From Ignavibacteria bacterium (lineage in GTDB: Bacteria > Bacteroidota > Ignavibacteria > Kapaibacteriales > UBA961): 64,000 bases of DNA. How positions within the stretch are numbered: the stretch's first letter is position 1; each line of letters begins with the position of its first letter. The stretch covers positions 27,301 to 91,300 of the forward strand of contig CANLII010000006.1 of the NCBI GenBank assembly GCA_947491315.1, read 5' to 3'. Positions 39,766 to 61,852 of this stretch are shown here, in pieces. The notes beneath the pieces were generated by a model that saw nothing but the letters and a program-made list of their open reading frames with translations, made no database searches and was not told the DNA's origin. Made by a program: the position numbers and the translations under genes.

Positions 39766-41913
39766 ATGCAACGTTTCAGCACATTTTTCAAGTCAGTATT
39801 TCTTGTAATAGCAATTTCAGCATCGTCATATTCACAAGATGAAAAACCTACTTGGTTCATAGGACCTTATGGTGCAATCATGCAAAGCATGCATTCCACA
39901 GGATTCAAAGATCTTCCTGGATATCCTTCATGCTGTTTTTCTGAAAGATCAGGTATAGGCATTGGATATGATATCGGAATGCTGCTTCGATTTCCCATCA
40001 ATGAAACAATGAGTTTTCGATTGTTTGGAGGAATCAATAGTCCGGGTGCAACAATATCAAGTGATGAAAAGATTGGTAATCAATTCATACGCAATCCACA
40101 ATTTCCATTTGATACAATTGCGCGGGATATCATGGTTCGACACTCCATTGAATCCATGATCACTCAGATATCAGCAAGACCAATGATTTCATATGCCTTG
40201 CCATTTGGCGGAGATATTTCTGCTGGATTTGGATTGAATTATGTGCTCAGTCAATCATTCAATCAAAAAGAAACATTGATTTCACCTAGTAATGCTGCAT
40301 TCTTGGATGGAAGAGGGAATCGCAATGACACTTCGGGAACAATTCCTGATATTTCCTCTTTTCAAACCACGCTTTCATTGGCATATTCATATGATCTACC
40401 AATTTCAAACACATCACTTCTTGTTCCATTCATAGAGTATCATTATCCACTCCAATCTCTAACTTCATATGATTGGAATATCAGTAGAATTCAACTTGGT
40501 TTGGCATTGCAATTTGGAATTGTCCCAAGCAAAGCCCCAAAAGTGATTACGGATACAGTGTATAGAAGAGACACAATCATCAAAGTTTCACCAATTGCAG
40601 TCAATACACCAACCATATTGAATGAAAGTCAAAAGGGATTTATCAAAGGTGAAGCACACAATGATATTCGCATTGATACAATCATGATTAGCGAAACATA
40701 TGTCACCACATTATTCACTCCTCCAGGGTATAAAGGAAATCTGTTGGTATATGGTCTCGATGAAAAAGGAAAACAAACCTTAAAGCCAATAATAAGGATT
40801 GAAGAATGGGAACAAATTGAGACATTCCCTTTGCTACCATATATATATTTTGAGGAGGGTTCATCTGACCTAGGTGGAACAAAACAAAGACTATTATTAC
40901 CCTCGCAGGCAGGATTATTCAATGAAGATTCATTGAATTCATCAACACTTGACATATACCGAGACATTTTAAATATCATTGGAAGTAGAGCAAAGGCATC
41001 ATCAGCATCATTTGATATATCGGGCTTTACCAATACACTAATCGAGGATGATGTCCCAGGGATCACACTCCAAAGAGCAAAAAGTATACAGTCCTATATG
41101 CAATCCATCTGGAGCATTAGTTCTAACAATATATCCTTAAACTCTGGGAGATTACCTCGTACTCCCACAAATCCATCGACACTTGATGGTAAGCAAGAAA
41201 ATGCGAGAGCTGAAATCTCATCGAAGGATCCTAATTTATTGAGTCCATTGAAGAAAAGAACTATCACCCGCACAATGAATCCACCGTTATTGGCGATTCA
41301 ACCCACGATTCAAGCAGGTGAGGCCATACAGTCTTGGAAAATCATCATTAAGGATGGAGAACAAATAGTACAAACATTTAAAGGAAATGGCAAAATCCCT
41401 GATAGTACTTTTACATGGATGATTTCCCCATCGAGTCAAATGTCCAATAAACCACTTGTAGTCTCATTACAAGCCATAGATACGATTGGAATCAATCATT
41501 CCTGGAACATAGATGTTCAAACAGAAAGAGTAACACTTCGAAATAAGCAGGAATTACGCATCAATGATACATTGATCGAGCGATTTGCGTTGATTCTTTT
41601 TGATTTTGACAAATCAAGTCTTAGTTCCGCGAATCAGAACATTGCCAAGACCATAAAGCAGTCTATTAAGGCAAATTCCACTATTACCATCACAGGTTAT
41701 ACGGATAGAACAGGTGATTCCACCTATAATCAAGTTCTTTCCGAAGAGCGCTGCAAACAAGTGAGCCAATATCTGGGTCTTTCCTCAGGAACCTATTCCA
41801 TTATACCTATGGGCGGAAAAGAGATTCCTTTTGAAAATGACACACCTCAAGGAAGGGCTTATTCGAGGACTGTGATGATCGAAGTCAAAACACCTATTAA
41901 AGAAGGGAAATAA
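39766..41913 (+). CDS. Large OmpA-family outer membrane protein (N-terminal beta-barrel-like region + C-terminal OmpA/peptidoglycan-binding domain)
   Basis: 715 aa. Signal peptide. C-terminal ..ITITGYTDRTGDSTYNQVLSEERCKQV..RTVMIEV is an OmpA_C-like domain. Confidence 0.75.
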   Translation: MQRFSTFFKSVFLVIAISASSYSQDEKPTWFIGPYGAIMQSMHSTGFKDLPGYPSCCFSERSGIGIGYDIGMLLRFPINETMSFRLFGGINSPGATISSDEKIGNQFIRNPQFPFDTIARDIMVRHSIESMITQISARPMISYALPFGGDISAGFGLNYVLSQSFNQKETLISPSNAAFLDGRGNRNDTSGTIPDISSFQTTLSLAYSYDLPISNTSLLVPFIEYHYPLQSLTSYDWNISRIQLGLALQFGIVPSKAPKVITDTVYRRDTIIKVSPIAVNTPTILNESQKGFIKGEAHNDIRIDTIMISETYVTTLFTPPGYKGNLLVYGLDEKGKQTLKPIIRIEEWEQIETFPLLPYIYFEEGSSDLGGTKQRLLLPSQAGLFNEDSLNSSTLDIYRDILNIIGSRAKASSASFDISGFTNTLIEDDVPGITLQRAKSIQSYMQSIWSISSNNISLNSGRLPRTPTNPSTLDGKQENARAEISSKDPNLLSPLKKRTITRTMNPPLLAIQPTIQAGEAIQSWKIIIKDGEQIVQTFKGNGKIPDSTFTWMISPSSQMSNKPLVVSLQAIDTIGINHSWNIDVQTERVTLRNKQELRINDTLIERFALILFDFDKSSLSSANQNIAKTIKQSIKANSTITITGYTDRTGDSTYNQVLSEERCKQVSQYLGLSSGTYSIIPMGGKEIPFENDTPQGRAYSRTVMIEVKTPIKEGK

Positions 41914-43364: not shown

Positions 43365-44972
43365 TTGATCATGGCTGCTAAGAAAACGAAATATATTTTC
43401 ATTTCAGGTGGAGTTCTCTCTTCACTTGGAAAAGGAATTGCCTCTGCCTCCCTGGGTTTACTCTTAAAACAAAGGGGATTATCGGTCACAATTATGAAAT
43501 TTGATCCATATATCAATGTGGATCCCGGAACAATGAACCCTCAACAACATGGTGAAGTGTATGTTACCGATGATGGTGCCGAATGCGATCTCGATCTCGG
43601 ACATTATGAGCGCTATCTTGATGTTGATGGAACCAGATCAAATTCCGTTTCTTCAGGTCAAGTGTATTTTGAAGTGATTCAAAGAGAGCGTCAAGGGCAA
43701 TATCTTGGTAAGACTGTACAAGTGATTCCCCATATCACCGATGAAATCAAAAAACGCATGACAATTTATGACAAACTCTTTGATATTGTCATCATCGAGA
43801 TAGGTGGAACTGTCGGAGATATTGAGTCCTTACCATTCATGGAATCCGTTCGTCAATTATGCATGGAGAAAGGTCCGAAAAGCACTCTGAATATACATTT
43901 AACCTATGTTCCCTATATCAAATCTGCTGGGGAGTTAAAAACAAAACCAACGCAACATTCAGTTAAGATATTGATGGAAATGGGGATTAGACCTGATATC
44001 CTCCTCTGCCGAACTGAGCAGCCAATGAATAAAGAATTGAAAAGCAAGATTGGTTTATTCTGTAATGTGGAAGAAGATTCCGTCATCGAAGTGCTTGATG
44101 CAGAAACCATATATGAAGTACCTCTCAGTCTTGCGAAACGCAATCTCGATCAAATCGTTCTCAAGAAGTTTTCTATGCCGCTCGGCAAATTGGACATGGA
44201 CACATGGACCAAATTTGTTAATCGCATCAAGCAACCAAAGCATACTGTGCATATCGGATTGATCGGAAAATACAATCAAGTGAAAGATTCATACAAAAGT
44301 ATTCTGGAAGCATTCGTTCATGCTGGTGCCATCAATAATGCCAAAGTTGAAATCACTTGGATTGATTCTGAGAATGTTAACAAAATAAGTGTGGCAACCA
44401 TATTGAAAGGTATGCAGGGAATTCTTGTGGCTCCGGGTTTTGGATCAAGAGGTATTGAAGGAAAGATTGAAGCCATTAGATATGCCAGAGAAAACAAGAT
44501 ACCCTTCTTTGGCATCTGTCTTGGAATGCAATGTGCTGTGATTGAATTCGCCCGCAATGTTGCAGGCATAAAAGATGCACATTCGGCTGAATTCAAAAAG
44601 GGAAAGGAATTGGTTATTCACCTGATGTCAACACAAAAGCAGGTAACAGATAAAGGTGGTACCATGCGACTAGGTTCCTATCCCTGCACCATTCGTAAAG
44701 GCACCATTGCGCATGCGGCTTATGGAGTTGATTCAATTCATGAGAGACATAGACATCGCTATGAATTCAACAATGCTTATCGCAAAACATTGGAAGATCA
44801 TGGCATGAAGCTAAGCGGAGTATCTCCTGATACAACATTGGTGGAAATCATCGAATTGAAAAATCACCCATGGTTTGTCGGCGTACAATTCCATCCTGAA
44901 TATAAGTCACGAGCCGTGAAAGGACATCCCCTCTTCATCAGTTTTGTTAAAGCAGCAATGCAAAAAATATAA
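43365..44972 (+). CDS. pyrG: CTP synthase
   Basis: [17 protein letters not shown].. N-terminal synthetase domain. C-terminal glutamine amidotransferase domain with GICLGMQ. 535 aa. Confidence 0.95.
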
Positions 44973-46202
44973 TCATCGGAATGTTTGACCTTTCCAATGA
45001 ACATCTTTCTTTAGTAAAAGAAAGGCAACCATGATTTCCATATAAATCATGAAGAGCATACCCGGGATCATCCAAGGGATATATCTGGTTCTTCTGAGTG
45101 CAAAGAGCGTAGGCATAACAATCATGCAGTCACCTATCACTCGCATGGCCAAGATGCTCAACACACTTGTCCAGTCACTCATATACCCTGAATAGATGAG
45201 TGAAGACCAAAACACAAAGGCAAAGAAGGCAAAAAGATATTTTTTCCAACCCAATGCATCTGAGCCACGGACCCATCTATGTTGTTGACTCACAAAGCTC
45301 TTCCAATCCGGGCATGGTTCTGTACTAACGGCATTAGAATGGTGACATGGGTAAGAAATTCCATAACCCGCTTTTGAAACCTCGGTCAATAATTGCAAAT
45401 CCTCTGTTACTGAAAATTTGATGCCAGCATAACCACCAACAGCATCATAGACAGATTTTCTTATTGATAAGTTATTACCAAAGCATCCAAGTGGATGCCC
45501 AAGAGACATTGCTGCAGATGCCAATGTATGATTCATCATCCATTCCATATCCTGCAAATGATGAAATGCTGTACTTGTGTTTATAGTTGTGAATCCTGCA
45601 ATCATTCCGATTGTAGGATTGGAATATGCATGCGCTATTGTGCGCACCCAATCATCAGGGAATATACAATCGGCATCAGACATTATGATGATCGTACCTG
45701 TTGCAGATGATATTCCCGCATGCAAGGCACCTGCTTTACCACGAACATTACCAAATCGTTCTTCGGTTAACTGAACAGACTTTATTCTTTTATCTTTTGC
45801 AGAAAAAGCATCAATAATTGCTTGCGTGGAATCTGTTGAGCGATCATTAACAATGATGAATTCAATTGTTGAATCAGTGTTTTTTAGGAGAGATTCCAGA
45901 CAGTAGGGCAATGCCTCTTGTTCATTTCTTGCTGGAATGATAATTGAGATTGCTTCATTCACTAGAGAATGATTGGGGAGAAGAATGCGTCTTGACCGGG
46001 CCGCACCATAGATAAAAACAAGAGTTTTTACCGCAAAAAGCAGGAGAACGAAATCGATCAATGACATAGAATCGTTCAATGAGATGTGAAAAGCGAAATC
46101 AGGATTATGCTCAAGATATAATGCCAGTTGCCAATCTACCAATACTGTGATATTCAAATCCTTCGGATGCAACAGAATCAGGATCGAATAAATTTCTACC
46201 AT
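44973..46202 (-). CDS. Processive family-2 glycosyltransferase / polysaccharide synthase-like membrane protein (QxxRW motif)
   Basis: N-terminal TM. GT-A core ISIIIPARNE..FIIVNDRSTD..IIMSDADC. QQHRWVRGS (QxxRW). Multiple C-terminal TM helices. Size and architecture like PgaC/HasA/Cps3S/NodC. An alternative start at the internal Met (46067) would remove the 92-nt overlap with ugd. Confidence 0.8.
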   Translation of the reverse strand: MVEIYSILILLHPKDLNITVLVDWQLALYLEHNPDFAFHISLNDSMSLIDFVLLLFAVKTLVFIYGAARSRRILLPNHSLVNEAISIIIPARNEQEALPYCLESLLKNTDSTIEFIIVNDRSTDSTQAIIDAFSAKDKRIKSVQLTEERFGNVRGKAGALHAGISSATGTIIIMSDADCIFPDDWVRTIAHAYSNPTIGMIAGFTTINTSTAFHHLQDMEWMMNHTLASAAMSLGHPLGCFGNNLSIRKSVYDAVGGYAGIKFSVTEDLQLLTEVSKAGYGISYPCHHSNAVSTEPCPDWKSFVSQQHRWVRGSDALGWKKYLFAFFAFVFWSSLIYSGYMSDWTSVLSILAMRVIGDCMIVMPTLFALRRTRYIPWMIPGMLFMIYMEIMVAFLLLKKDVHWKGQTFR

Positions 46203-47451
46203 CGAAAATCAATGATTGCTTCATTGATGCACGCAATACGGAAAAATCTGGCTTACGGAATTCATTCCATTCTGTTGCAATAATGAGTACATCAGCGTCT
46301 TTCAATGTATCATATGCGGAATTGGCATAGTGAATAGCATCACCATATATAGACTTGGTATTGGGCATTGCTTCGGGATCATAAGCAGAAATATTCGCAC
46401 CAACTTCCAATAGCCTATCAATGATTGTATAAGCAGGAGCTTCACGAACATCATCTGTATTGGGTTTGAATGACAATCCCCATAATGCAATTTTTGCATC
46501 TTTTGCAGAATTCAATCTATTGATGATCTTCTCCACAAAACGATTGATTTGTCTAGCATTTGCTGCTTCGACGGCATGAATGATTCCAAGCGGAGCACCA
46601 ACTGCATCAGTGGAATGTAATAATGCTTTTACATCTTTGGGGAAACAACTTCCGCCATAACCAATTCCGGAAAAGAGGAATCGCTTTCCTATTCGTGAGT
46701 CTGAACCAATTCCTATGCGAATATTTTCGATGTCGGCACCAATGATTTCACAATACTCAGAAAGTTCATTCATGAATGAGATACGCATTGCCAAGAAACA
46801 ATTTGCTGCGTATTTGGTGATTTCAGCACTCTTCTCATCCATCACATAAATTGGATTACCACTGCGCAGAAATGGCTCATATAAATCACGCATCTCATCT
46901 TCAGCGCGCTCATTGGAGGTGCCAACAACAACTCGATCGGGTTTCATGAAATCTTCTACCGCAAAGCCTTCTCTCAAAAATTCAGGATTGCTGACTACTT
47001 CGATATCAAAACCTGGAGCATGATTTCGACAAATCATGCGAACTTTATCTGCTGTCCCAACGGGTACGGTACTTTTATTGACCAATATTCGAAAATCAGT
47101 GATGTTTTCTTTCTTGATAATGTCAGCTATATTTTTCGCAGCATCCATCACATAATTCAAATCCGCAGAGCCATCTTCACCTGGAGGAGTGGGCAAACAC
47201 AAAAACAACATTGAGCATTGTTTTACGGCTTGCTCCAAATTCGTTGAGAATTTCAAGCGACCATTGCTGATATTCCTTTCGAGTAAATGCTCAAGACCCG
47301 GTTCGTAGATTGGCATTTTACCTTGTTGTAATGTTTCAACTTTATGTTGATCAACATCAATACAGAGAACATTATTTCCGCTTTCAGCAAAACAAGTTCC
47401 TGTAACAAGTCCTACATATCCTGTGCCGATGATTCCGATCGTTTGTGACAT
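46111..47451 (-). CDS. ugd: UDP-glucose 6-dehydrogenase
   Basis: MSQTIGIIGTGYVGLVTGTCFAE.. NAD-binding N-terminus. Catalytic GGSCFPKD. 446 aa. Confidence 0.93.
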   Translation of the reverse strand: MSQTIGIIGTGYVGLVTGTCFAESGNNVLCIDVDQHKVETLQQGKMPIYEPGLEHLLERNISNGRLKFSTNLEQAVKQCSMLFLCLPTPPGEDGSADLNYVMDAAKNIADIIKKENITDFRILVNKSTVPVGTADKVRMICRNHAPGFDIEVVSNPEFLREGFAVEDFMKPDRVVVGTSNERAEDEMRDLYEPFLRSGNPIYVMDEKSAEITKYAANCFLAMRISFMNELSEYCEIIGADIENIRIGIGSDSRIGKRFLFSGIGYGGSCFPKDVKALLHSTDAVGAPLGIIHAVEAANARQINRFVEKIINRLNSAKDAKIALWGLSFKPNTDDVREAPAYTIIDRLLEVGANISAYDPEAMPNTKSIYGDAIHYANSAYDTLKDADVLIIATEWNEFRKPDFSVLRASMKQSLIFDGRNLFDPDSVASEGFEYHSIGRLATGIIS

Positions 47452-47452
47452 A

Positions 47453-47635
47453 TCAAGGTTGATTGAGAAGTTTCAAAATGACGAGCGCAAGTATGATAAG
47501 CGCGAAAAGAGACAGTGCAAATTTAATGAAACTGCGTGCCACTTTCAGCACAATTAAGAGGAGAATTATCCCAAGTATGATTATGAGATACAGAGGCAAA
47601 CTTTCTATAAATAGGATGATATTATCTATTTCCAT
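47453..47635 (-). CDS. Small hydrophobic (2-TM) peptide, 60 aa, translationally coupled to ugd
   Basis: Stop TGA lies 1 nt before the ugd ATG. Almost entirely Leu/Ile-rich helices (LPLYLIIILGIILLLIVL..LSLFALIILALVILKLL). No homolog recognised. Confidence 0.35.
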   Translation of the reverse strand: MEIDNIILFIESLPLYLIIILGIILLLIVLKVARSFIKFALSLFALIILALVILKLLNQP

Positions 47636-47647
47636 CTTGATTCAGGC

Positions 47648-48406
47648 CTAATTTGGCTTAAATGTGAAGGTAATGATACCGGTCATCTGTATATCCGAAT
47701 CGAGTCGATTAAATTTCCATTTCTTCAATGTCCTGAGTGAAACCGATTCTAGACCTGGATCACCCTTTGTCATAGGACGCATATCGCCAACTGTACCATC
47801 AGGTAAAACAGAAAATCGAATCTTGATTGAGACCAATCTGTCGAGATTTCCGGGACTTGGTGGCAATATCTTGTTTAAAACGGTGCGATTTCCTCCACCA
47901 CCCCATTCAATGTCACCCAAACCCATACCTTTTCCGGGTCCTGTTCCCTTTTCTCCCAATCCTGTACCATTTCCACTTCCTGCTCCAACAGCCTTACCTT
48001 GTCCTTTGGAAGAATCCGTATCAGATTTGTTCGTGGATGATACATTATTCTTGGCAATTGGATTCGATGTTGACAATGGATCCTTTGCCGATGAGGTTGA
48101 CTTTACCTTGCCTGCATCTTCAAGTGGATTTTGAGGCTTTGCGCCTGAAGACTTAGCACCTTCTTTTGCCAAATTACCTTTGCTCCTTCCCGTTCCATCT
48201 CCTTCACCAAAATTCAATAAGATGATTGGACTGTAATTGACTTCTTTTTTATAGGGCTCAATAACAATACTAGTCTGAGAAAACCAGAACAGTAGAATAA
48301 ACATCAGCAATAATGCAATGAAAAATCCTCGTGCTGCATAGCGATCCCAGAGCACTTTAATGCTATATGTGAACCGGGTATCATTATATCGCTCTCTCAA
48401 TGACAT
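47648..48406 (-). CDS. TonB-C-terminal-domain (energy transducer TonB/TolA-like) membrane-anchored protein
   Basis: N-terminal TM anchor, a Ser/Gly/Lys-rich low-complexity linker, then C-terminal VSIKIRFSVLPDGTVGDMRPM..SLRTLKKWKF (TonB_C-like beta-alpha-beta pattern). Confidence 0.55.
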   Translation of the reverse strand: MSLRERYNDTRFTYSIKVLWDRYAARGFFIALLLMFILLFWFSQTSIVIEPYKKEVNYSPIILLNFGEGDGTGRSKGNLAKEGAKSSGAKPQNPLEDAGKVKSTSSAKDPLSTSNPIAKNNVSSTNKSDTDSSKGQGKAVGAGSGNGTGLGEKGTGPGKGMGLGDIEWGGGGNRTVLNKILPPSPGNLDRLVSIKIRFSVLPDGTVGDMRPMTKGDPGLESVSLRTLKKWKFNRLDSDIQMTGIITFTFKPN

Positions 48407-48413
48407 TACATAC

Positions 48414-49469
48414 TCACTTTACTCTATCTACCCATGAATTGGAATATCCGACTTTTTTGGCGGCAGTCTGTGCTTGTTTTCTATCTTCGAAAGATCCGAA
48501 ACGAACACGATACCACGTTTTTCCATTCAATGATTTCTTGGTAACTATTGCTGAAGAAATCCCTTTCGATTGTAAATTCTTCAGCGCTTTATCAGCCTCT
48601 TGTTTTGAAATGCTTGAAAGTACCTGTACAGAATATTCTTCACCAGAAGTATTTTTCACTTGCTTCTTGGCTTCCTGATTCTTTTTTACAGGTTCTTGAT
48701 CAAGAAAGGTTTCACTCCGAACTTGATCTTTTTCACTTTGGTTTTTAGAATTAATGTTTTCCGATTTCTTCTTCTCAGGATCTTTTTTCACGATCTTTTG
48801 AGCAATAGCCTTCTCTTGTTTTTTCTTTTTTTCAGGAGCAGGTGTTTGTACTTTTGTCTTTGGCTGAATAGGTTTATCTTTCTGTATAGATTCAGTCTGT
48901 TTGACATCATCTACTTCACGGTATTCAGGGAAAGTTTTTGCAGGGATGGGATCCGGTGGAACCACTTTCTTCTCAGGAGCTTTGGATTCTTCATTGATGA
49001 TCTCATCGCCCCTTTCATTATTGCCGATATTCTGTCCTTGCGACATTTGCATGCGAGCCAGATAATCTTGAACTCGAGCAATTGAATCCTGCTCCATCGT
49101 TGTAGCTAGAGCCTGCTTCCTGGCCTCCTCTTCATTCAATTCGGCAACTGTAACTGTGTCAACACTCACAATCTGTTCCGGATTGATTTCTTTTCCATCT
49201 TTGGATGTAATCATCCAAATAATGGCTAATGCAGAAACAGTGGCGATTGCAATCAATGCCATTTTTTTTACAGGAAACTGATCTTCAGGCGGAACATCAG
49301 GTTGTACATAAGAAATAAATCCTGAGCCGGACTCTTTGGATGTACCTTTTTCGGGTGATGATGCGGAATCACTTTCTGAAGACAATTTTGATTTGTCATG
49401 CAAAAAGGTTTGGTCATCTGATTCACCAAAACCACCAAATTCATCATGTGGATTTTGTTGATTACTCAT
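48414..49469 (-). CDS. SPOR-domain protein (septal peptidoglycan-binding, DedD/FtsN-like)
   Basis: Acidic N-terminus, one TM (MALIAIATVSALAIIWMI), a Lys/Glu/Pro-rich linker, and a C-terminal SPOR fold (YSVQVLSSISKQEADKALKNLQSKGISSAIV..WYRVRFGSFEDRKQAQTAAKKV). Confidence 0.75.
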   Translation of the reverse strand: MSNQQNPHDEFGGFGESDDQTFLHDKSKLSSESDSASSPEKGTSKESGSGFISYVQPDVPPEDQFPVKKMALIAIATVSALAIIWMITSKDGKEINPEQIVSVDTVTVAELNEEEARKQALATTMEQDSIARVQDYLARMQMSQGQNIGNNERGDEIINEESKAPEKKVVPPDPIPAKTFPEYREVDDVKQTESIQKDKPIQPKTKVQTPAPEKKKKQEKAIAQKIVKKDPEKKKSENINSKNQSEKDQVRSETFLDQEPVKKNQEAKKQVKNTSGEEYSVQVLSSISKQEADKALKNLQSKGISSAIVTKKSLNGKTWYRVRFGSFEDRKQAQTAAKKVGYSNSWVDRVK

Positions 49470-49483
49470 ATTTTCTCTTCCTT

Positions 49484-51091
49484 TTAGAAAAGATATCTCG
49501 CACCGAGTGCGACGAATGTTCCCCTCTCTCTAAACCTGTTCCATACATACACGGAAGAATTGAGGAGATTATCAATCCGAATAAATGCTTCGAGATCTTT
49601 TTGAATTGTATAATTGAGCTTGAAATTTGCCATGATATAAGATGGTAGTTCAATGGAATCATCTTTGGTAACGGTTCTTGCATCCACATATTCAAGGGAA
49701 ATGATGGAAGTGAATGATGCAAACCAATCACGCTCATATCGCATACCTATTGTGAGTGGCGCTAACATCGGAATAGCTATCGGTGAATCTGATAGAGAAC
49801 TAAAAAGCAAAGAAGCATATCCACCGATTCTGGTATGTTGAAAAGGTTTCCATTGACCTTCCAATTGCAAATCCAATATCGTGCCTGTTAGATACTCAAT
49901 TGTAAATCCTTGAAATTTTCCTGATTCAGTAGAATTTGGCAACATCACTGGTACATTCGATGAAGTCTGATATTTGGTCTTGAATGATACCGATACATCT
50001 ATGTCCGGATGCCAATGAATGATTGGAGTGATTACTATATCATCTCTTCTGAATGAAATCATTGGCATGTGAATCAAATATGGATTTCTCAAAAGCATTT
50101 CACTGAGTGAATTATTATTCAAACCACTGCTGAATTGAAGTGATGAGGTGAACTCAGATGATATTCTATAATCTGCATTACCATTCATCGAAATGGCTCC
50201 GAATTGAATACCTTCAGAATTTGTGGCAGTTTGCAATCCTGCACCAAATGTCACGGTCAAATCATCATCTGTCCATGTTCCGGATGCCCCTGCCTGTATG
50301 AAATTATACGAAGAAGTATCGCCATAGGAATGCAAATCAACATTGAGATTACCTGTCATTGACATCCCGAACAAAGGCGTTGTGACTTGTGCATATCCTT
50401 TTATTCGTGAATCAGACAAAGAAAGTGAATCTGTTCCTATTGTCAATGATTGCCAATGAGCACCCATTGTATATGCATATGAACCAATTGTTCCTTTTAC
50501 ATCTACCTGAGCTCCAAGATTATCGACGCTTCGTTCAACGACATTCATTTTATCGGCACCAAACAATTGATAGCGATTTGATGCATAATTCAAGCCTGTT
50601 TCAGTTCTACTACCACCAAAAAATACATATTTTTTTGGAGCATCATAAGCGGCTTGAAGCGCAATTCCAGTTTTTGAAAAATTAGCATTATCGATATGGC
50701 CTTGACTTCCTTCATAATTACCGAAGACATCAACAGAATATCCTCCTGATGCGAAAGAATATCCTGCATTGAGTTTCGGAGTCATGAAGATTCCGAATTC
50801 TCCCATTGCATACCCATTGACAGAATATGGTTTCATTGGACTTAAAGGCAATGGTATCGCAGGTAATAATGGTATTGGAATTTTTATATCTGTATTGATT
50901 GAATCTAGTTCTGCTTTTGTGAATACTCCGGGCTTAGCAGGCTTCATTTTTAATCCACCTTTGATATCTGCATTTGTTTTACCGGTAATCACGAATTCCT
51001 GCAAATCCAATGGCTGTTCTGCTGCGTTCTTGCTATCCTGAGCATACACAGAGCACACCATCAAGAGTACTATGAAACTTTTGATCATCAT
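49484..51091 (-). CDS. Hypothetical outer-membrane beta-barrel protein
   Basis: Signal peptide MMIKSFIVLLMVCSVYAQ. About 500 aa of alternating Gly/aromatic beta-strand-like segments. Terminal ..ALGARYLF. Start overlaps the stop of the TPR gene (ATGA). Confidence 0.6.
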   Translation of the reverse strand: MMIKSFIVLLMVCSVYAQDSKNAAEQPLDLQEFVITGKTNADIKGGLKMKPAKPGVFTKAELDSINTDIKIPIPLLPAIPLPLSPMKPYSVNGYAMGEFGIFMTPKLNAGYSFASGGYSVDVFGNYEGSQGHIDNANFSKTGIALQAAYDAPKKYVFFGGSRTETGLNYASNRYQLFGADKMNVVERSVDNLGAQVDVKGTIGSYAYTMGAHWQSLTIGTDSLSLSDSRIKGYAQVTTPLFGMSMTGNLNVDLHSYGDTSSYNFIQAGASGTWTDDDLTVTFGAGLQTATNSEGIQFGAISMNGNADYRISSEFTSSLQFSSGLNNNSLSEMLLRNPYLIHMPMISFRRDDIVITPIIHWHPDIDVSVSFKTKYQTSSNVPVMLPNSTESGKFQGFTIEYLTGTILDLQLEGQWKPFQHTRIGGYASLLFSSLSDSPIAIPMLAPLTIGMRYERDWFASFTSIISLEYVDARTVTKDDSIELPSYIMANFKLNYTIQKDLEAFIRIDNLLNSSVYVWNRFRERGTFVALGARYLF

Positions 51092-54000
51092 GGCTTCGCC
51101 TTCTGTATTCTCTTCAATCTTGCCGATGCGGTTTTACCATAATCATCATCGGGTCTTAATGTAATGAGTGTTTGGAATACCTCATTTGCCGCATCATAAT
51201 TTTTCAGTGTTTCATAACAATCACCAAGACCCAATAGTGATAAGGAGAACCAATCTTCTATGGAACTAGATTGCTCTCTCACTTCCAAGAATGCGGTGAT
51301 GGCATTTGCATATTCCTTTTGCTTCATCCACAATTCGCCGATTCGATATTGCGCTTCTGCTGCAATTGTTGGATTCTCCATTCTTTTGGCAATTTGCCTG
51401 AAATGAACTATCGCACTATCAAACATTGTGCGTGAACGATAATACATTGCAATTCTATATCTGGATTGATCTCCGAATTCAGTTTTATCATATGTTTCTG
51501 CCGTCAAAGAATATAGTCGCAAAGCTTGAAGTGAATCCCCAAGTGTCGTTGCGATTTGCGCTCTCTCAAATCCGGCTTGAGCCGATGAGGCATTTTCGGG
51601 AAATTCAGTCATCACCATCGCAAATGCAGTATCAGCTTCACGATATCTTTTATCCTGTACTTTCATGAGTCCGATTTCCAGCAATGCGAGCGGAGCAAAT
51701 TCTGTTTTTCCATATTTCTTGAATACATCTTTCCAGGATTGTTCGGCCTTGCCGGATTCACCCAAACTCGAAAAACTCTTACCTAGATAGAAGAGCGCCT
51801 CAGCATTTCTTTCTATATCACTATTGGACTTCAAAAAGGCTTCATATTCTGTGATTGCACCGGCATAATTCTTCCCATTATAAAAACTTAGTCCCCTATT
51901 CATCAGTAAATCTTTGGAGATTTCAGATTGTGGATTCTTGGAAATGAAATCATCTACAATCACATTGGCTTCATCCACCCTTCCCAAAAATTCCAAACTA
52001 TATTGAATGCTCTTTACTGCTTCTCCTGCCAAGGGCGAAGATGGATATTGATTTTTTACAACTGTATACGATGCAATTGCATCATCATAACGCTCAAGAT
52101 TATAATATGCATCCGCAATGGTATAATGTGTTCTTGCGGCAAGTTGCGTAGATGGAAATACAACTAACAAAGACTTCAATTCGTGAATTGCATCATCATA
52201 TTTTCTTTGTTGGAATAATGTCCAACCAACCGAATATAATGCAGATGCCGATAATGGAGATTGCGGATAAGAACGCGCGAATATTCTGAATGCTTTTATT
52301 GCCCCTTCGAAATCATCAATTCTATATAATGCCTGTCCATATTGATATGCAGAATATTGTCCTTCCTCAGAGCGAGGTCCGGCATTCATAGCAGACTTAT
52401 ACGCAGCGGCAGCATCTTTGAATTGTCTCAATGCATAATGTCCATCACCTTTTCTTGCCAAGGCATCGGTAGCAAAACGAGTTTGAGGAAATTCCTTGAC
52501 CAATTTTGAAAATGATTGCGAACTTTTTGCAAATTCTCTTCTACGAAATTGCGCCCAAGCAATACCATACATACTCTCTTCTTTGCGATTGCTATTGGGA
52601 TAATCTGAAAGTAACTGCGTAAAAAATTCCTCGGCATTTGTCAAGAGATCCGTTTTATAATACGATTCAGCAAGCCAAAACAATGCTTGATCTCTTCTAG
52701 CATCAACTTTATGCTCACCAAGGAAAGTAGATATCTCAATAATTGCATCTCTGTATTGTTCATTTTGATGCAGTGATATTCCTTGTTTCAGTCTTGCTTC
52801 CGCGAGAATGCTCTCTCTATTCTCTAATTCTCTTTTGGACATTGAAAGCACCATTCTCTCGGCTGATGCATATTCTCTGGCTGATTTTCCGAATTGCTCT
52901 TGATCATGATATACGCTTCCGAGCAATAAATGGAGTTTTACAGACAATGACTTTTCTTGAGTCTCACGCAATGCTCTTTCAAAAGTCTTTCGAGCCGTTT
53001 CCATTTCATTATCTTCATAGACCAATTGACCATATTCCAGCAATGCATGTCCCAACAATTGATATCCGGTCTGCATTGTCAAAGCAGCAAACTCTTTCTT
53101 TGCTCTATCTCTTTCGCCTTTCGCTTTTGCAATCAATCCATGATATAATTTTGCTCCGGCTTTGAGGAATGCATGTTCTTCATTTGTAGAATCAATCACA
53201 TAGCGATACAATGCTTCAGCTTCATTATACTTCCCAAGATGAAATGCAGCATAACCTGCAGACATTTTTGCGTGAGGCATAATCGGAGACTGTGGATATG
53301 CATTCATGAATGCAAGAAATGCATCATAGGCTTGACTGCTTTGTTTTGCTAAAACCAATGCTTGCGCTCGCATGAATGACAAATCTTCGATTGCATGATC
53401 AGAAAAAGATTGGACTTCAGGCTTGATGATTGTCGTGTCTTGCGATTGTAATTTGTCCACCAATGCTTGGGCTTGTTCCATATATGCAATCGCAGCATTC
53501 GGTTCTCGCATTCCAAGCTTGATATTGGAGGCACGAATGGAGGAACTCAATGCAGTGTTTCTCTGCGGATATGTTCGTAATAATTCTCCATATAAGGCTA
53601 TGGCTTCTTGCTCAGCACCGGATCTTTCACGCAACTGAGCTCGCATATACAATGCATCATCGGCCAATTCATGGATTGGATAGAGAGATTGTATTTCTTT
53701 GAGTGTTATACCTGCATCATCTGGATTTCCGCCTCTTGCTTGGGAAGCACCTTTCCAATACAATGACATCGCGCAATAATGAGCATGCAATGAATCGGTC
53801 TTGGCCTTCTCTCGAGATATCTCCACAACTTTACCAAAATACTCTATCGCTTTTGGCATATCCGTTTGAAAATATGCTATGGAACCCCTTTCAATCAACG
53901 CAATTGGAAGAAATGGTGAATTCGGTCTTTGTTGAATGAACTTGTCCAGTGCTATGTCAGCATATTGAACATCACCAGATTGTCTCATCATGAGAGATCT

Positions 54001-54213
54001 CAAGATTGAAGCTTCATCTGCATGAGACCCCTGTTCAGCAATAACTAGAGATTGACGGAATTGCTTTCCCGCTTCAGCCAGCATGCCGTCATCTATAAGT
54101 ATTGAAATACCTCGAAGATCCTTTATGCCATAGAGGACTCCCGGTTCTAACAATTGGCCATGCATGATATTCATTGAAATCACGCAAAAAGCCATGGATA
54201 ACCAATGCTTCAT
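51088..54213 (-). CDS. Large tetratricopeptide-repeat (TPR) protein with signal peptide
   Basis: About 1042 aa from the internal Met (MKHWLSMAFCVISMNIMHG). More than 20 TPR-like 34-aa repeats with W/L-G-Y-A-F-P periodicity throughout. Confidence 0.85.
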   Translation of the reverse strand: MKHWLSMAFCVISMNIMHGQLLEPGVLYGIKDLRGISILIDDGMLAEAGKQFRQSLVIAEQGSHADEASILRSLMMRQSGDVQYADIALDKFIQQRPNSPFLPIALIERGSIAYFQTDMPKAIEYFGKVVEISREKAKTDSLHAHYCAMSLYWKGASQARGGNPDDAGITLKEIQSLYPIHELADDALYMRAQLRERSGAEQEAIALYGELLRTYPQRNTALSSSIRASNIKLGMREPNAAIAYMEQAQALVDKLQSQDTTIIKPEVQSFSDHAIEDLSFMRAQALVLAKQSSQAYDAFLAFMNAYPQSPIMPHAKMSAGYAAFHLGKYNEAEALYRYVIDSTNEEHAFLKAGAKLYHGLIAKAKGERDRAKKEFAALTMQTGYQLLGHALLEYGQLVYEDNEMETARKTFERALRETQEKSLSVKLHLLLGSVYHDQEQFGKSAREYASAERMVLSMSKRELENRESILAEARLKQGISLHQNEQYRDAIIEISTFLGEHKVDARRDQALFWLAESYYKTDLLTNAEEFFTQLLSDYPNSNRKEESMYGIAWAQFRRREFAKSSQSFSKLVKEFPQTRFATDALARKGDGHYALRQFKDAAAAYKSAMNAGPRSEEGQYSAYQYGQALYRIDDFEGAIKAFRIFARSYPQSPLSASALYSVGWTLFQQRKYDDAIHELKSLLVVFPSTQLAARTHYTIADAYYNLERYDDAIASYTVVKNQYPSSPLAGEAVKSIQYSLEFLGRVDEANVIVDDFISKNPQSEISKDLLMNRGLSFYNGKNYAGAITEYEAFLKSNSDIERNAEALFYLGKSFSSLGESGKAEQSWKDVFKKYGKTEFAPLALLEIGLMKVQDKRYREADTAFAMVMTEFPENASSAQAGFERAQIATTLGDSLQALRLYSLTAETYDKTEFGDQSRYRIAMYYRSRTMFDSAIVHFRQIAKRMENPTIAAEAQYRIGELWMKQKEYANAITAFLEVREQSSSIEDWFSLSLLGLGDCYETLKNYDAANEVFQTLITLRPDDDYGKTASARLKRIQKAKP

Positions 54214-54336
54214 AATATTTTGGAGGATGGAAAGATGCTGCACTTCAAAAATACGAATATCCTGCAATTAGAAAGTGCATGAATTGCATTTTTATATGTT
54301 ATCGATTGAAATGATTGTATTGATTGTTCTCTATAC

Positions 54337-55089
54337 TTAAAGCAAACCCAAAAAAGCAATATTTCTACCCATATTCCCCTCTCTTCGATACGAATGAAAT
54401 CGATCATCTGTAATGGTACAAATAGTTGATAATTCAATGTGTTGTGACTGAACACCAGATTTCCTTAAAGTTGAAGCAATATATGATCGTAAATCAAAAT
54501 GGTATTTCAGGTTCACTTGAACAACAAATCCCGGAAACAAATCCTGGAACTCGGGTCCTACCTCATATTTATCTCTCCCTGCACAGGGGGTTAGCCAAAT
54601 CAATACATCTGAAGGATGTGTACCAAATTGTTCCTTCATGATTTCTATTCCCTTCGGTCCAATATCTAGCTTTGCTCCTCGCCAGCCGGCATGCAATGCC
54701 ATTATAGCCATATTTTTTGGATCATATATCATGATGCCACAACAATCGGCAAGTGCAATTCCCAATACTAATTCAGGGTTATTGGTGTATATCCCATCTC
54801 CATCAGGAAGCATGTTCAGTCCTGCTTCATGTATGTGATCTCCATGAACTTGATTCAAAGAGATAATCCTTTTTCCTATTCCACTTCCGATCGAATTTTC
54901 CATTGATTCAATATGAACTTGGAATTGCTCATCGGTAAGCGATGCTCTTCGGAATGAAAATCCTGAAGGCTGAAATTTACTCATCTCACCTTTCATCGAC
55001 ATTCCACAGAGAATTGAATTTTGCTTGAATATAGTAGGTTCTAAGCATTCCAATTTACTCTTCCTCATTACTCTGCAATGCAATGACAT
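54337..55089 (-). CDS. pgeF: Peptidoglycan editing factor PgeF (YfiH/DUF152 purine-nucleoside phosphorylase / laccase-like)
   Basis: NQVHGDHI.., ..ALADCCGI.. and ..LHAGWRGA.. motifs. 250 aa. 5' end overlaps the queG 3' end. Confidence 0.85.
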   Translation of the reverse strand: MSLHCRVMRKSKLECLEPTIFKQNSILCGMSMKGEMSKFQPSGFSFRRASLTDEQFQVHIESMENSIGSGIGKRIISLNQVHGDHIHEAGLNMLPDGDGIYTNNPELVLGIALADCCGIMIYDPKNMAIMALHAGWRGAKLDIGPKGIEIMKEQFGTHPSDVLIWLTPCAGRDKYEVGPEFQDLFPGFVVQVNLKYHFDLRSYIASTLRKSGVQSQHIELSTICTITDDRFHSYRREGNMGRNIAFLGLL

Positions 55090-56029
55090 TTCTTTGCAAA
55101 CCGGCTAATTTGGTTCTTTTCACAGGACTTTTCCTGAATCTATCTGAAAAATCCTCTTGCTTCATTTCCAAAATGGAGTGAAATGTCAAACCTGTTTCAT
55201 TATTCCTTGGTTGAAATTCTTGGATAGAGGTTTCTGATGAGAATCTATTCCAAGGACATATATCCTGGCAAATATCACATCCATATACCCATTGCTCCAT
55301 ATGAGTTGCAATTTCAATTGGAATGTCAATTGGTGGTTTTGCTTCTATCGTCCAATAAGAAATACATTTGTTTGCATCCACTGTATAAGGTTCTATGATT
55401 GCATTTGTAGGACAAGCATCCAAGCAAGCAGTGCAGGTTCCACAATAATCTTCCATCGGTGAATCATAATGCAATGGAATGGTGGTTATAATGATTCCCA
55501 AGAAAAACCAAGATCCAATCTCTCGTGAAATGATATTGGAATTCTTACCTTGCCATCCTATCCCTGCTTTGCGTGCCCATTGTTTTTCAGGAATCGGTCC
55601 CGTATCGACATATACTTTGGATTGTGAAGAAGGATCTATGGATTGTAATGTAGATACTATTTCTTGCATCTTCATTGGAAGTATTTCATGATAATCGGTA
55701 CCCCAAGCATAGCGCGAGATTTTTCCTTCTTCTTTGGAATCTTGGTGTGCATGAGGTGTATAATAGGACAATCCAACAACAATCACGGATTCAGCCCCCG
55801 GGAGTATTTCCCTTATATCTTTCCTTTTCTCAAGATTCTTTTCCAAATACTGCATTGTGGCATGATAACCAGAAGCAAGCCATTCTTGATATCGATCAAA
55901 CTCCTCCGGCAATGCTTCCGCCTTGGCAATGCCCACCAATTCAAATCCCGCTTTCTTTGCAGTTTGCTTTATGAGCTCTGAATGATAGGATTTGGAATAG
56001 TCCATCTTGATCAAAAATTCCGAAGCCAA
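55055..56029 (-). CDS. queG: tRNA epoxyqueuosine(34) reductase
   Basis: Two ferredoxin-type clusters (CGTCTACLDACP and CDICQDICP) after an N-terminal cobalamin-binding-like domain. 324 aa. Typical QueG length and order. Confidence 0.85.
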   Translation of the reverse strand: MASEFLIKMDYSKSYHSELIKQTAKKAGFELVGIAKAEALPEEFDRYQEWLASGYHATMQYLEKNLEKRKDIREILPGAESVIVVGLSYYTPHAHQDSKEEGKISRYAWGTDYHEILPMKMQEIVSTLQSIDPSSQSKVYVDTGPIPEKQWARKAGIGWQGKNSNIISREIGSWFFLGIIITTIPLHYDSPMEDYCGTCTACLDACPTNAIIEPYTVDANKCISYWTIEAKPPIDIPIEIATHMEQWVYGCDICQDICPWNRFSSETSIQEFQPRNNETGLTFHSILEMKQEDFSDRFRKSPVKRTKLAGLQRNVIALQSNEEE

Positions 56030-57886: not shown

Positions 57887-58360
57887 TCACTCCATCATGG
57901 ATTGTATAGTGGTAAATAATTCTTCTTTTTCCAATTGTTTTTCAAGAAATACTCTTTTCTTGATCCGATTTCGCAGAATGATTGTAGCAGGTAGAGAACC
58001 TGTCCAATCCGGTTCAATTGTATCTATCCATTCATTTGGATTTTGCTCATCAAGTAAAAGAATTTCCGATTTCAATTCTTTCTTCTTTACAAAAGGCAGA
58101 AGCACCCTTTCAAGTTCCGCGGGTGAATCTAAACTTACGAGGATGACACGCACATTTTTTTGAGCAAAAGCTGAAGTAGCTTCTTCGAAGTAAGGTAATT
58201 CTTCAATGCAAGGTTTGCACCATGTAGCCCAGAAATTGATCACATAGACAGAATCAGCATCATTATTGAGAAGCGAAGTCAATGCATCCAATTTCACTGT
58301 CTTGACTTGAGAAAAAGCCGTAACTGAAGAAAGCACTACCATGATTAAAAAAATTCTCAT
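57887..58360 (-). CDS. Secreted TlpA/ResA-like thiol:disulfide oxidoreductase
   Basis: Signal peptide. WATWCKPCIEELPYF is the TlpA-like WCxxC active site. 157 aa. Confidence 0.7.
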   Translation of the reverse strand: MRIFLIMVVLSSVTAFSQVKTVKLDALTSLLNNDADSVYVINFWATWCKPCIEELPYFEEATSAFAQKNVRVILVSLDSPAELERVLLPFVKKKELKSEILLLDEQNPNEWIDTIEPDWTGSLPATIILRNRIKKRVFLEKQLEKEELFTTIQSMME

Positions 58361-61851: not shown

Positions 61852-61852
61852 A

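Follow-up and report, generated by a model that had tools for sequence, protein, structure and literature searches.

The locus lies in a 64,000-nt stretch of a Kapabacteria/Ignavibacteria genome (the window, as analysed here), where seven tightly packed ORFs run in the same direction on the minus strand between 44973 and 54213. From 5' to 3' its features are:

54246..54253, minus strand: TATTTTTG, which fits TAnnTTTG, the Bacteroidetes-type -7 promoter motif, and lies 33 nt 5' of the TPR start codon
51088-54213, minus strand: gene 1, secreted all-TPR protein, 1041 aa, about nine YbgF/CpoB-type TPR modules
49484-51091, minus strand: gene 2, outer-membrane protein (OMP), 535 aa, with signal peptide, N-terminal extension and 22-strand barrel
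50978..51007, minus strand: candidate TonB-box-like motif D29-L-Q-E-F-V-I-T-G-K38, close to the mature N-terminus of the OMP
48414-49469, minus strand: gene 3, bitopic SPOR protein, 351 aa (58 bits to Pfam SPOR, whose cut-off is 21)
47648-48406, minus strand: gene 4, TonB_C-like inner-membrane-anchored protein, 252 aa (Pfam TonB_C, 17.8 bits)
47453-47635, minus strand: gene 5, micro-protein, 60 aa, two TM helices, its basic loop conserved
46111-47451, minus strand: gene 6 (ugd), nucleotide-sugar dehydrogenase, 446 aa, all three UDPG_MGDP_dh Pfam domains
44973..46067, minus strand: gene 7, membrane-embedded GT2, 364 aa, start and length taken from homologues

The seven-gene string reported in an earlier note on this DNA is real, every ORF being found in its place, and the arrangement exceeds chance, since the order recurs in 81 related loci. 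By their coordinates the TPR and OMP genes share a 4-nt ATGA overlap, and the next four spacers (OMP-SPOR, SPOR-TonB_C-like, TonB_C-like-peptide, peptide-ugd) measure 14, 7, 12 and 1 nt; median spacers in the 81 related loci are 6 nt (TPR-OMP), 14 nt (OMP-SPOR) and 15 nt (SPOR-TonB_C-like). The OMP has 535 aa where "roughly 500" had been given, and one gene had to be resized: starting from ATG 46202 the GT2 would have the 409 aa first assigned to it and overlap ugd by 92 nt. Because nearly all of its homologues (~120 among the matches listed) are 364-375 aa long and align from ATG 46067, we read it as a 364-aa protein behind a 43-nt spacer past ugd. TAnnTTTG is the -7 promoter element of the FCB group. 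TATTTTTG sits in the 123-nt interval that follows pgeF; across the window the motif shows no enrichment (49 copies found against 57 expected), and TATTTTTG is a weak candidate promoter.

The length of gene 1 is counted from the ATG that opens its signal peptide, which is of type I and not that of a lipoprotein; the ORF itself extends back to a TTG at 54267. Pfam recognised TPR families alone, while the tol_pal_ybgF model TIGR02795 was satisfied with 304.8 bits over nine stretches and a BamD-type TPR model scored 166 bits. The C-terminus is basic and conserved among the termini of 49 orthologues (LRPDDDYGKTA..RLKR). The OMP belongs to a family of 1724 cluster representatives (E<=1e-30) that matches no Pfam family, and its barrel has the 22-strand fold of TonB-dependent transporters (TBDTs) with the plug domain absent; a Pfam search returned no Plug match. 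Its N-terminal extension of ~70 residues is conserved yet disordered (residues 1-86 are disordered), and alignment A1 shows L30, F33, I35, G37 and K38 of the TonB-box-like motif to be invariant. Counterpart motifs are EVVIEKD in a TolQR-linked lineage and VVNVVKPY in Flavobacteriales; in the window's own canonical TBDR the sequence NDVLVMGDG sits past its N-terminal domain and ahead of the plug.

Genes 3 and 4 each encode a protein with one TM helix and a C-terminal domain. In gene 3 an acidic cytoplasmic N-terminus precedes the TM helix (70-88), a K/E-rich linker and the SPOR domain (residues 276-347, window 48429-48644); the FtsN equivalog is not reached (17.6 against 107.65 bits). SPOR domains as a family bind septal peptidoglycan. 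Gene 4 has its TM helix at 24-42, a Gly-rich linker and the TonB_C-like domain, and its conservation profile picks out PWDxxTARGF ahead of the TM helix and LLNFGxGDGTG past it. The orthologue in locus L041 passes the Pfam TonB_C model at 32.9 bits. The gene 5 loop carries the motif K/R-x-F/L-I/V-K-F-A, and no family in Pfam or NCBIfam corresponds to this micro-protein.

In a synteny survey of the 81 loci, in which OMP identity falls as low as 23% and denominators differ per gene, the TPR gene stands immediately 5' of the OMP gene in 56/69 Kapabacterial loci (and in 20/22 of the Bacteroidota type), the SPOR gene follows the OMP gene in 68/70, the TonB_C-like gene is kept in 54/64, and a small hydrophobic ORF homologous to gene 5 lies directly 3' of gene 4 in 44/58. 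The conserved unit is thus a five-gene core of TPR, OMP, SPOR, TonB_C-like and 2-TM micro-protein, although common gene order inside one class may partly reflect inheritance rather than selection. The TPR-OMP pair is also kept in cultured Flavobacteriales and other Bacteroidota. A second, Bacteroidota-type lineage has the order TPR-OMP-SPOR-TolQ-TolR-TonB-like-FolC (locus L089), and the TolQ-containing order was found in 20/20 metagenome loci whose flanks were long enough. The Kapabacterial gene 4 family is homologous to the TonB-like family beside TolQR (hhalign 96.4%, E 1.3e-9), and the two share the LNFG motif past the TM helix. Neither the window nor the 10 kb around any Kapabacterial locus yielded a TolQ/ExbB or ExbD gene. 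Kapabacterial anchors lack the SxxxH motif present in most TolQR-linked relatives, and the TM helix of gene 4 contains no His.

The locus is composite: genes 1-5 form one envelope module of the FCB group and genes 6-7 lie outside it. The module is widespread in Bacteroidota/Ignavibacteria, undescribed, and resembles the Tol/TonB force-transducing systems. Anatomy and synteny lead us to a reading that we hold at about even confidence, in which genes 1-5 build a trans-envelope link resembling Tol-Pal and TonB, with the septum as its probable site of action. The TonB_C-like domain would capture the barrel's N-terminal strand through beta-strand augmentation, in the way that TonB engages the TonB box and TolA engages TolB, and so would connect inner membrane, peptidoglycan and outer membrane. 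The TPR superhelix would scaffold this link, perhaps by binding the Pro-rich part of the extension that remains beyond this strand, and the SPOR domain would gather it at the division septum, making the module a functional analogue of TolA-TolB-Pal-CpoB. Since the operon of the sister Bacteroidota-type lineage carries TolQ and TolR motor genes, the link there would be energised; in Kapabacteria, with no motor gene inside 10 kb and the usual TM histidine missing from the anchor, it may or may not be. Two suggestions of the earlier note gain from these results, namely that genes 1-4 might be a Tol-Pal/CpoB-like module with the sugar genes as mere neighbours, and that an energised trans-envelope link might be involved.

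With proteobacterial Tol-Pal the module shares an inner-membrane anchor ending in a TonB_C/TolA-III-type domain, CpoB/YbgF-type TPR modules, a partner whose N-terminal strand motif is disordered (as in TolB), a tie to septal-wall functions through SPOR and, in the sister lineage, TolQ/TolR-type genes within the operon. Unlike Tol-Pal, it has neither the TolB propeller nor the Pal lipoprotein, the partner being an integral 22-strand barrel; its TPR protein has 1041 aa and ~9 modules against the 263 positions of the NCBIfam CpoB model; it has its own SPOR protein and a micro-protein with two TM helices; and in the window no motor genes are close by and the anchor has no TM histidine. In Bacteroidetes, a 2025 survey could identify neither tol-pal loci nor pal genes (PMC12204202), and an unrecognised analogue is therefore plausible. 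The same paper proposes PorE as a compact Bacteroidetes counterpart of Tol-Pal, a single T9SS-tied lipoprotein with CpoB-, TolB- and Pal-like parts and a carboxypeptidase-like domain (PMC12204202). Like PorE, the module is a candidate for the "missing" OM-PG tether in this superphylum and has a CpoB-like TPR; unlike PorE, its parts are separate proteins (integral barrel, SPOR, TonB-like anchor) with adjacent TolQR in one lineage. Several observations count against the trans-envelope link: Kapabacterial loci have no motor gene close by and their anchors no SxxxH, the gene 4 TonB_C score lies under the cut-off of 24.6 bits, a plug-less 22-strand barrel should be an open pore unless filled, for which the model names no filler, and in roughly half of the Kapabacterial loci the core is followed by ugd, a linkage outside this account.

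In another explanation, which we consider unlikely, the OMP is a TonB-type gated conduit that imports or exports a bulky substrate (glycan or protein), the TonB_C-like protein opening or driving it, the TPR protein serving as periplasmic adaptor and SPOR only as wall anchor. The TBDT fold with its TonB-box-like motif, the wide lumen, the dedicated TonB-like gene and the ExbB/ExbD-type genes of the sister lineage fit such a conduit, and linkage to ugd might hint at a sugar-containing cargo. Myxococcus Oar, a TBDT serving protein secretion, offers a precedent. Yet no conserved substrate-binding protein, SusD-like lipoprotein, ABC/MFS importer or cargo gene accompanies the core, SPOR and the CpoB-like TPR suggest wall and septum rather than transport, and the sister-lineage motor protein is nearer TolQ (96 bits) than ExbB (59), both below cut-off. 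The OMP further departs from TBDTs in size (about 535-600 aa against 549-987 residues in matched solved chains) and in being obligately paired with a TPR protein of ~1000 aa.

Much the same parts would make up an Agl-Glt/Nfs-like surface-transport or gliding module: a TolQR-type motor, TonB-like GltG/J, TPR proteins GltC/D/E, outer-membrane barrels and a GltF-like small TM protein. A core of this kind was reportedly described by Luciano et al. in 2011. The AgmX/PglI C-terminal domain is the top NCBIfam match of the TonB_C-like proteins (19.2 and 23.1 bits), and the L089 TPR protein matches GltC faintly. Every Glt-related score is nonetheless under its cut-off (tail domain 40, GltC 450), NCBIfam gave no GltA, GltB, GltH or GltK-type match in the window or L089, SPOR is not among Glt components, and the barrel is TBDT-type rather than OmpA-like, leaving this reading very unlikely.

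The earlier note had itself favoured a split synthase-dependent uronic-acid exopolysaccharide (EPS) system, with Ugd providing UDP-GlcA, the QxxRW GT2 polymerising it, and TPR and OMP exporting the product like AlgK/AlgE or PelB. Such systems likewise couple a periplasmic TPR protein translationally to an outer-membrane barrel (here by the ATGA overlap), and in this window a GT2 and Ugd share one tight, co-directional gene string. Gene 6 is closest in similarity to UDP-glucose 6-dehydrogenase (TIGR03026 at 460.8 bits, cut-off 189.8; TuaD at 492 bits, under the equivalog cut-off of 700). The GT2 has a D, DAD, TED and QQHRW (QxxRW, residue 261 of the 364-aa protein), and its AF2 model (pLDDT 91.5) finds fold neighbours in PcManGT (best Foldseek match), hyaluronan synthases (TM up to 0.74, Xenopus HAS1) and BcsA. 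The proposal nevertheless failed on three grounds that the note had set for its own refutation, and we regard it as highly improbable. Co-conservation stops at the core: ugd follows it in 29/54 loci and in 0 Bacteroidota-type loci, a frequent but not obligate neighbour, and no more than 8/30, all of the nearest clade, have the GT2 inside 7 kb; it is a lineage-specific neighbour outside the conserved module. The adjacency of ugd and the GT2 is derived, a recent gene-order accident: fliLMNO separate them in L001 (ugd-fliLMNO-GT2), and GT2 orthologues elsewhere are solitary, amid housekeeping genes, beside rplY/prs or MatE; ugd would be the ancestral neighbour, which the GT2 joined only in the window's clade. 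The plug-less TBDT-type barrel is not of the AlgE/PgaA/BcsC type, EPS porins having 16-18 strands. Pfam and NCBIfam revealed no BcsB, PilZ, PgaD or Alg44-type partner, no co-polymerase, no c-di-GMP receptor and no polymer-modifying enzyme in the cluster, and in another lineage the core occurs with TolQR but without ugd or GT2. Synteny and fold thus largely refute an EPS-export machine.

A flagellum-associated periplasmic or outer-membrane scaffold, comparable to spirochaete collar or Campylobacter disk proteins, is barely credible: fliLMNO follow ugd in 9-12 loci (ugd-fliL-fliM-fliN-fliO) and gene 1 faintly matches the FlcA TPR model, but at 55 bits against a cut-off of 300, and the core persists with no fli genes nearby in the window's clade and L013-L015, and neither the operon of the Bacteroidota type nor the Flavobacteriales pair has flagellar neighbours.

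Two features of the GT2 itself also tell against the EPS system: it has four TM helices only (one N-terminal, three C-terminal; the AF2 model shows four long helices), and it falls far under every synthase equivalog (PgaC 74.5/422, NodC 53/550, CelA 17.6/699). It reaches the equivalog score of no characterised enzyme, which sets it apart from characterised minimal GT2s of cellulose-synthase-like fold. Its layout, a GT-A domain with DxD, TED and QxxRW between TM helices, is that of PcManGT (6YV7), NodC and cyanobacterial MgdA (Sll1377; PMC3916417). Two homologues carry the JGI name 1,2-diacylglycerol 3-beta-glucosyltransferase, and the most likely role of the enzyme is to glycosylate a membrane lipid or to assemble a short oligosaccharide.

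Seven consecutive minus-strand ORFs, listed below, confirm that the gene cluster described in the earlier note exists; the 409 aa given there for its glycosyltransferase (GT2) could not be kept, as the ATG chosen falls inside ugd. Because nearly all of the ~120 GT2 homologues listed are 364-375 aa long, we place the GT2 start at 46067, 43 nt past ugd.

Genes of the cluster (ORF calls, consecutive, 44973-54267, minus strand)
Gene 1: ATG at 54213 opens the signal peptide; minus strand; TPR protein of 1041 aa
Gene 2 (OMP): 49484-51091; minus strand; outer-membrane protein of 535 aa with a signal peptide and without a Pfam family
Gene 3: minus strand; 351 aa; single TM helix; SPOR domain at the C-terminus (58 bits)
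Gene 4: minus strand; 252 aa; single TM helix; linker rich in glycine; TonB_C matched weakly (17.8 bits, cut-off 24.6)
Gene 5: minus strand; peptide of 60 aa; two hydrophobic helices
Gene 6 (ugd): minus strand; UDP-glucose 6-dehydrogenase-type nucleotide-sugar dehydrogenase
Gene 7 (GT2): start 46067, stop at 44973; minus strand

Spacers within the cluster are -4, 14, 7, 12 and 1 nt, the 4-nt overlap of genes 1 and 2 being ATGA, and the closest homologues come from Ignavibacteria/Candidatus Kapaibacteria MAGs. At the distal end the stop codons of pyrG (+, ends 44972) and GT2 (-, ends 44973) abut with zero bases between them, so that a terminator of either gene must sit inside the other. Scans of 44000-55500 gave 7 intrinsic terminators vs 7.8 in shuffled sequence, no excess, and 33 sigma-70 sites vs 34.4, equal numbers that are uninformative on internal promoters. 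Nor is the motif TAnnTTTG enriched in the window, its sites 5' of the TPR gene and within the 60-aa gene being hints only. One of these, TAAATTTG at 47518-47525 (-), lies in the 60-aa gene, 67 nt 5' of the ugd start, and matches the Bacteroidetes-type -7 motif; a separate promoter for ugd is therefore conceivable here.

A genome collection was scanned with an OMP alignment, yielding 79 loci, all in Kapabacteria/Ignavibacteria-type MAGs; their gene content was then compared by tblastn and ORF clustering.

Conservation of the cluster among Kapabacterial loci (loci with the feature / loci whose flank is long enough)
TPR gene directly 5' of OMP: 56/69
SPOR gene after OMP: 68/70
TonB_C-like gene after OMP: 54/64
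Small ORF, two TM helices and conserved basic loop: 44/58
ugd after the core: 29/54
GT2 within 7 kb of OMP: 8/30

The conserved unit is genes 1-5, hereafter the core. Median spacers in these loci are 6 nt between TPR and OMP, 14 nt between OMP and SPOR and 15 nt between SPOR and the TonB_C-like gene. Neither the window nor any Kapabacterial locus, searched within 10 kb, has a TolQ or ExbD homologue. The TPR-OMP pairing is not absolute, since in six Kapabacterial loci (L072:513-3224 and five similar) the gene directly 5' of OMP encodes a 903-aa GH2 glycoside hydrolase instead of the TPR protein, and in two loci of the TolQR-linked lineage described below (L098 and L110) the TPR gene is likewise not the direct upstream partner. 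Directly 5' of the TPR gene in the window lies a PgeF/YfiH-type gene (54337-55089, -; Cu-oxidase_4, 161.7 bits), of a family that includes peptidoglycan editing factor; only the nearest clade retains this placement (9-12 loci), with queG, a Rieske protein and an MBL-fold gene preceding it.

The AF2 model of the OMP (mean pLDDT 75, barrel mostly >80) has 22 strands over residues 90-534, a barrel of the TonB-dependent transporter (TBDT) type, preceded by 86 disordered N-terminal residues, and its best PDB fold matches by Foldseek are ZnuD, OprC and BtuB (TM 0.65-0.68). Pfam detected no plug domain (PF07715), whether in the OMP of the window or in ten members of its family, and PDB sequence searches returned no close relative. 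The disordered N-terminus is the best conserved stretch of the protein (QPLDLQEFVITGK...ELDSINT...PLLPxxPLP, with L30, F33, I35, G37 and K38 invariant in the family alignment); its first motif, a conserved strand motif of the DLQEFVITGK type near the mature N-terminus, looks like a TonB box. In the canonical TonB-dependent receptor of the window (985-3801), NDVLVMGDG stands between N-terminal domain and plug. A profile search with the OMP reached distant relatives in cultured Flavobacteriales (Meridianimaribacter, Gaetbulibacter) and the 554-aa protein P0143. When an HMM of the family was run against 1.84 billion representatives, 1724 matches had E<=1e-30 and 3875 had E<=1e-10; nearly all of the top 150 are 510-604 aa, and none of these is long enough for a fusion to the ~1000-aa TPR protein. 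The members scanned belong to no Pfam family; in the NCBI and UniRef records of the OMP family, including those from Formosa, Myroides pelagicus and Cruoricaptor ignavus, the only names are 'TonB-dependent receptor' or 'hypothetical'. The literature searched contained no account of natural plug-less TonB-type barrels.

By Pfam, the gene 1 protein is composed solely of TPR repeats. It matches the NCBIfam Tol-Pal YbgF/CpoB model TIGR02795 in nine separate stretches (304.8 bits, cut-off 90.1) and a BamD-type TPR model in seven; the full-length CpoB equivalog NF008068 scores 148 vs 383, and the architecture differs from that of CpoB. BamD itself was rejected, the match being confined to the level of the TPR repeat, as was the type IX secretion (T9SS) protein PorW/SprE (110 bits vs a cut-off of 250, without a lipobox). 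Gene 3 encodes a bitopic protein with a TM helix at residues 70-88 and a C-terminal SPOR domain well above threshold (Pfam cut-off 21), a layout shared with the division proteins FtsN, DedD and DamX; it is not FtsN by the equivalog model (17.6 vs 107.65). At their N-termini, on the cytoplasmic side, the SPOR proteins have a conserved acidic motif, DEFGGFGESD in the window (protein 48414-49469), GGFEPGDPDDETF..(E/K)YPGDLP in most Kapabacteria (orthologues in L018-L080) and D(F/Y)GLP(E/D) in the TolQR-linked lineage (L091-L114). Perhaps a division protein of the cytoplasm docks on this peptide.

OMP relatives outside the Kapabacteria retain much of this arrangement. A ~1000-aa TPR gene lies directly 5' of OMP in M. 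flavus (L088) and in L090, and the order in L089 is TPR (1020 aa), OMP (554), SPOR (236), MotA_ExbB (227), ExbD (129), a 289-aa protein and FolC. The L089 motor protein scores higher with the tolQ model (96 bits) than with that of exbB (59 bits), both below cut-off, as is the tolR match in this lineage (41 bits). Scanning metagenomes with OMPs of the TolQR-linked lineage gave 25 loci, none with ugd or GT2. All 20 loci with at least 1 kb downstream have a TolQ-like gene after OMP (+SPOR), and where the flank suffices ExbD/TolR, a TonB-like gene and usually FolC come next; of 22 loci, 20 have the TPR gene on the upstream side. The 289-aa protein of L089, like gene 4 of the window, has weak TonB_C and AgmX/PglI-tail matches (the latter 19.2 bits vs a cut-off of 40 in gene 4), and a gene 4 orthologue passes the TonB_C cut-off at 32.9 bits. 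BLASTP found no match between the window protein and that of L089; the homology of the two families emerged at the profile-profile level only (hhalign, 96.4% probability, E 1.3e-9, 107 C-terminal columns). Both carry LNFG...G.G right after the TM helix. That helix contains S-x-x-x-H in most TolQR-linked TonB-like proteins, with N or Q replacing H in some, whereas the Kapabacterial family lacks SxxxH and conserves PWDxxTARGF before the helix. Directly after the TonB-like gene, a ~430-aa ORF recurs (L089:13727-15007, L091, L100, L104-L114); it is folC in L089 (TIGR01499, 368 bits), the other loci being judged by size and position alone. In E. coli the SPOR gene dedD is a neighbour of folC, and the recurring folC-SPOR neighbourhood may be coincidence.

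Compared with Tol-Pal, the window core has CpoB/YbgF-type TPR modules in a different architecture and a weakly scoring, putative TolA/TonB-type anchor without SxxxH; the TolQ/TolR motor genes are absent from the window cluster but present in the sister lineage. No TolB beta-propeller or Pal OmpA-like lipoprotein was found among the seven products. With a SPOR protein and an OMP bearing a disordered strand motif added to these parts, the core probably amounts, by analogy, to a trans-envelope link resembling Tol-Pal, in which a TBDT-derived barrel would replace TolB-Pal, and we rate the five-gene module among the Tol/Ton-type systems. In such a link the TonB_C domain would capture the N-terminal strand of the barrel, the TPR protein would scaffold the anchor-barrel connection and the SPOR domain would direct it to the septum. 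The earlier note had offered, as its alternative, a Tol-Pal/CpoB-like module beside unrelated sugar genes; of the two readings in the note this fits better, and it is extended here. A more specific version, which we put forward tentatively and think rather unlikely, is that in the FCB group genes 1-5 stand in for TolB-Pal-CpoB, pulling the outer membrane in at division. The TolA-like anchor would then grip the TonB-box-like N-terminus of the plug-less barrel, a giant CpoB-like TPR superhelix would scaffold the link and the SPOR protein would target it to the septum; Kapabacteria would have lost the in-operon TolQR motor and gained a two-TM micro-protein partner. A 2025 survey found Bacteroidetes without identifiable tol-pal loci or pal genes, and proposed PorE as a compact substitute, with further systems probably still undiscovered (PMC12204202). 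If true, the replacement would fill this gap and be the first TBDT barrel recruited as a structural tether. The literature searched held no account of the five-gene set, a large uncharacterised group of proteins that spans Kapabacteria/Ignavibacteria and cultured Flavobacteriales, provides an example of a TBDT barrel that lost its plug and is tied in one lineage to a TolQ-TolR-TonB-like motor in the same operon. It offers a genetically testable candidate for coupling of outer membrane, wall and divisome in the superphylum. One of the literature searches brought up only the 2025 survey, on Tol/TonB systems, and Luciano et al. 2011.

The main proposal of the earlier note, a split synthase-dependent system secreting a uronic-acid exopolysaccharide (EPS), is not supported. 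In its favour, a secreted TPR scaffold does adjoin an outer-membrane barrel gene, a feature that is generic and not peculiar to EPS systems. Ugd is also sound: it has three UDPG_MGDP_dh Pfam domains, passes TIGR03026 (460.8 vs 189.8) and, though the TuaD and AglM equivalogs are not reached, scores far above the UDP-ManNAc dehydrogenase models. GT2 has DAD131, TED221 and QQHRW261, all invariant in the GT2 alignment. The D, DxD, (T/S/G)ED and QxxRW motifs are those of class I hyaluronan synthases and Cps3S-type processive synthases, and also occur in non-processive and lipid GT2/GT21 enzymes. The GT2 model (AF2, pLDDT 91.5) has four long membrane-capable helices, one N-terminal and three C-terminal, plus the QxxRW helix, compared with the larger TM bundle of solved HAS and BcsA structures. 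Its best fold match is the 'minimal' membrane GT2 PcManGT (6YV7), with BcsA also matched and with TM 0.64-0.74 over the shared part to Chlorella-virus and Xenopus hyaluronan synthases; PDB sequence searches found no close relative. GT2 falls far below every curated equivalog (PgaC 74.5/422, HpnI 71.5/310, NodC 53/550, CelA 17.6/699) and passes Pfam Glyco_transf_21 (50.5 vs 21.7). JGI labels two homologues 1,2-diacylglycerol 3-beta-glucosyltransferase, and the same layout, with flanking TM helices, is seen in MgdA, a lipid glycosyltransferase of cyanobacteria (PMC3916417). By fold, a processive synthase is not distinguished from a glycosyltransferase that acts on lipids or makes short products. 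The argument against coupling to EPS is one of synteny.

The eight GT2-adjacent loci are all in the clade nearest the window, GT2 is absent near TolQR-linked and Flavobacteriales loci, and its pairing with ugd is not conserved across loci. Orthologues of 35-43% identity are solitary beside rplY/prs or a MatE gene, with no ugd or export genes nearby, which favours GT2 as a stand-alone enzyme. As ugd is followed by fliL-fliM-fliN-fliO in 9-12 loci and the order in locus L001 is ugd-fliLMNO-GT2, the ugd-GT2 adjacency is derived, via loss of flagellar genes. The OMP, with its TBDT-type fold, is not a porin of the AlgE/PgaA/BcsC/PelB type, and Pfam and NCBIfam revealed no co-polymerase or c-di-GMP receptor (BcsB, PilZ, PgaD, Alg44, PelD) among the seven products. 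We regard the window's sugar genes as ordinary. A flagellar role of the core was rejected because the core persists without fli genes nearby, and the Myxococcus Agl-Glt/Nfs machinery was dismissed as only its AgmX/PglI tail scores, below cut-off, and no other Glt model (GltA/B/C/D/E/F/G/H/K) matches any of the seven products at E<=0.01.

Elsewhere in the window, a 1571-aa protein (29495-34210, +) combines a VWA domain at its N-terminus with ASH/Ig-like domains and matches Por_Secre_tail weakly (25 bits vs a cut-off of 27); this T9SS sorting domain suggests that the organism has a type IX secretion system. A 715-aa secreted protein encoded outside the cluster (39766-41913, +) ends in an OmpA peptidoglycan-binding domain (59.6 bits) and is a possible further tether between outer membrane and peptidoglycan in this genome; its gene has the same relative position in locus L003. 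Also kept in L003 is the pairing of genes at 58357-62584 (-), which encode first a DUF4175 protein (1164 aa), containing a long coiled region rich in Q, K and E, and then a DUF4159 protein (216.7 bits).
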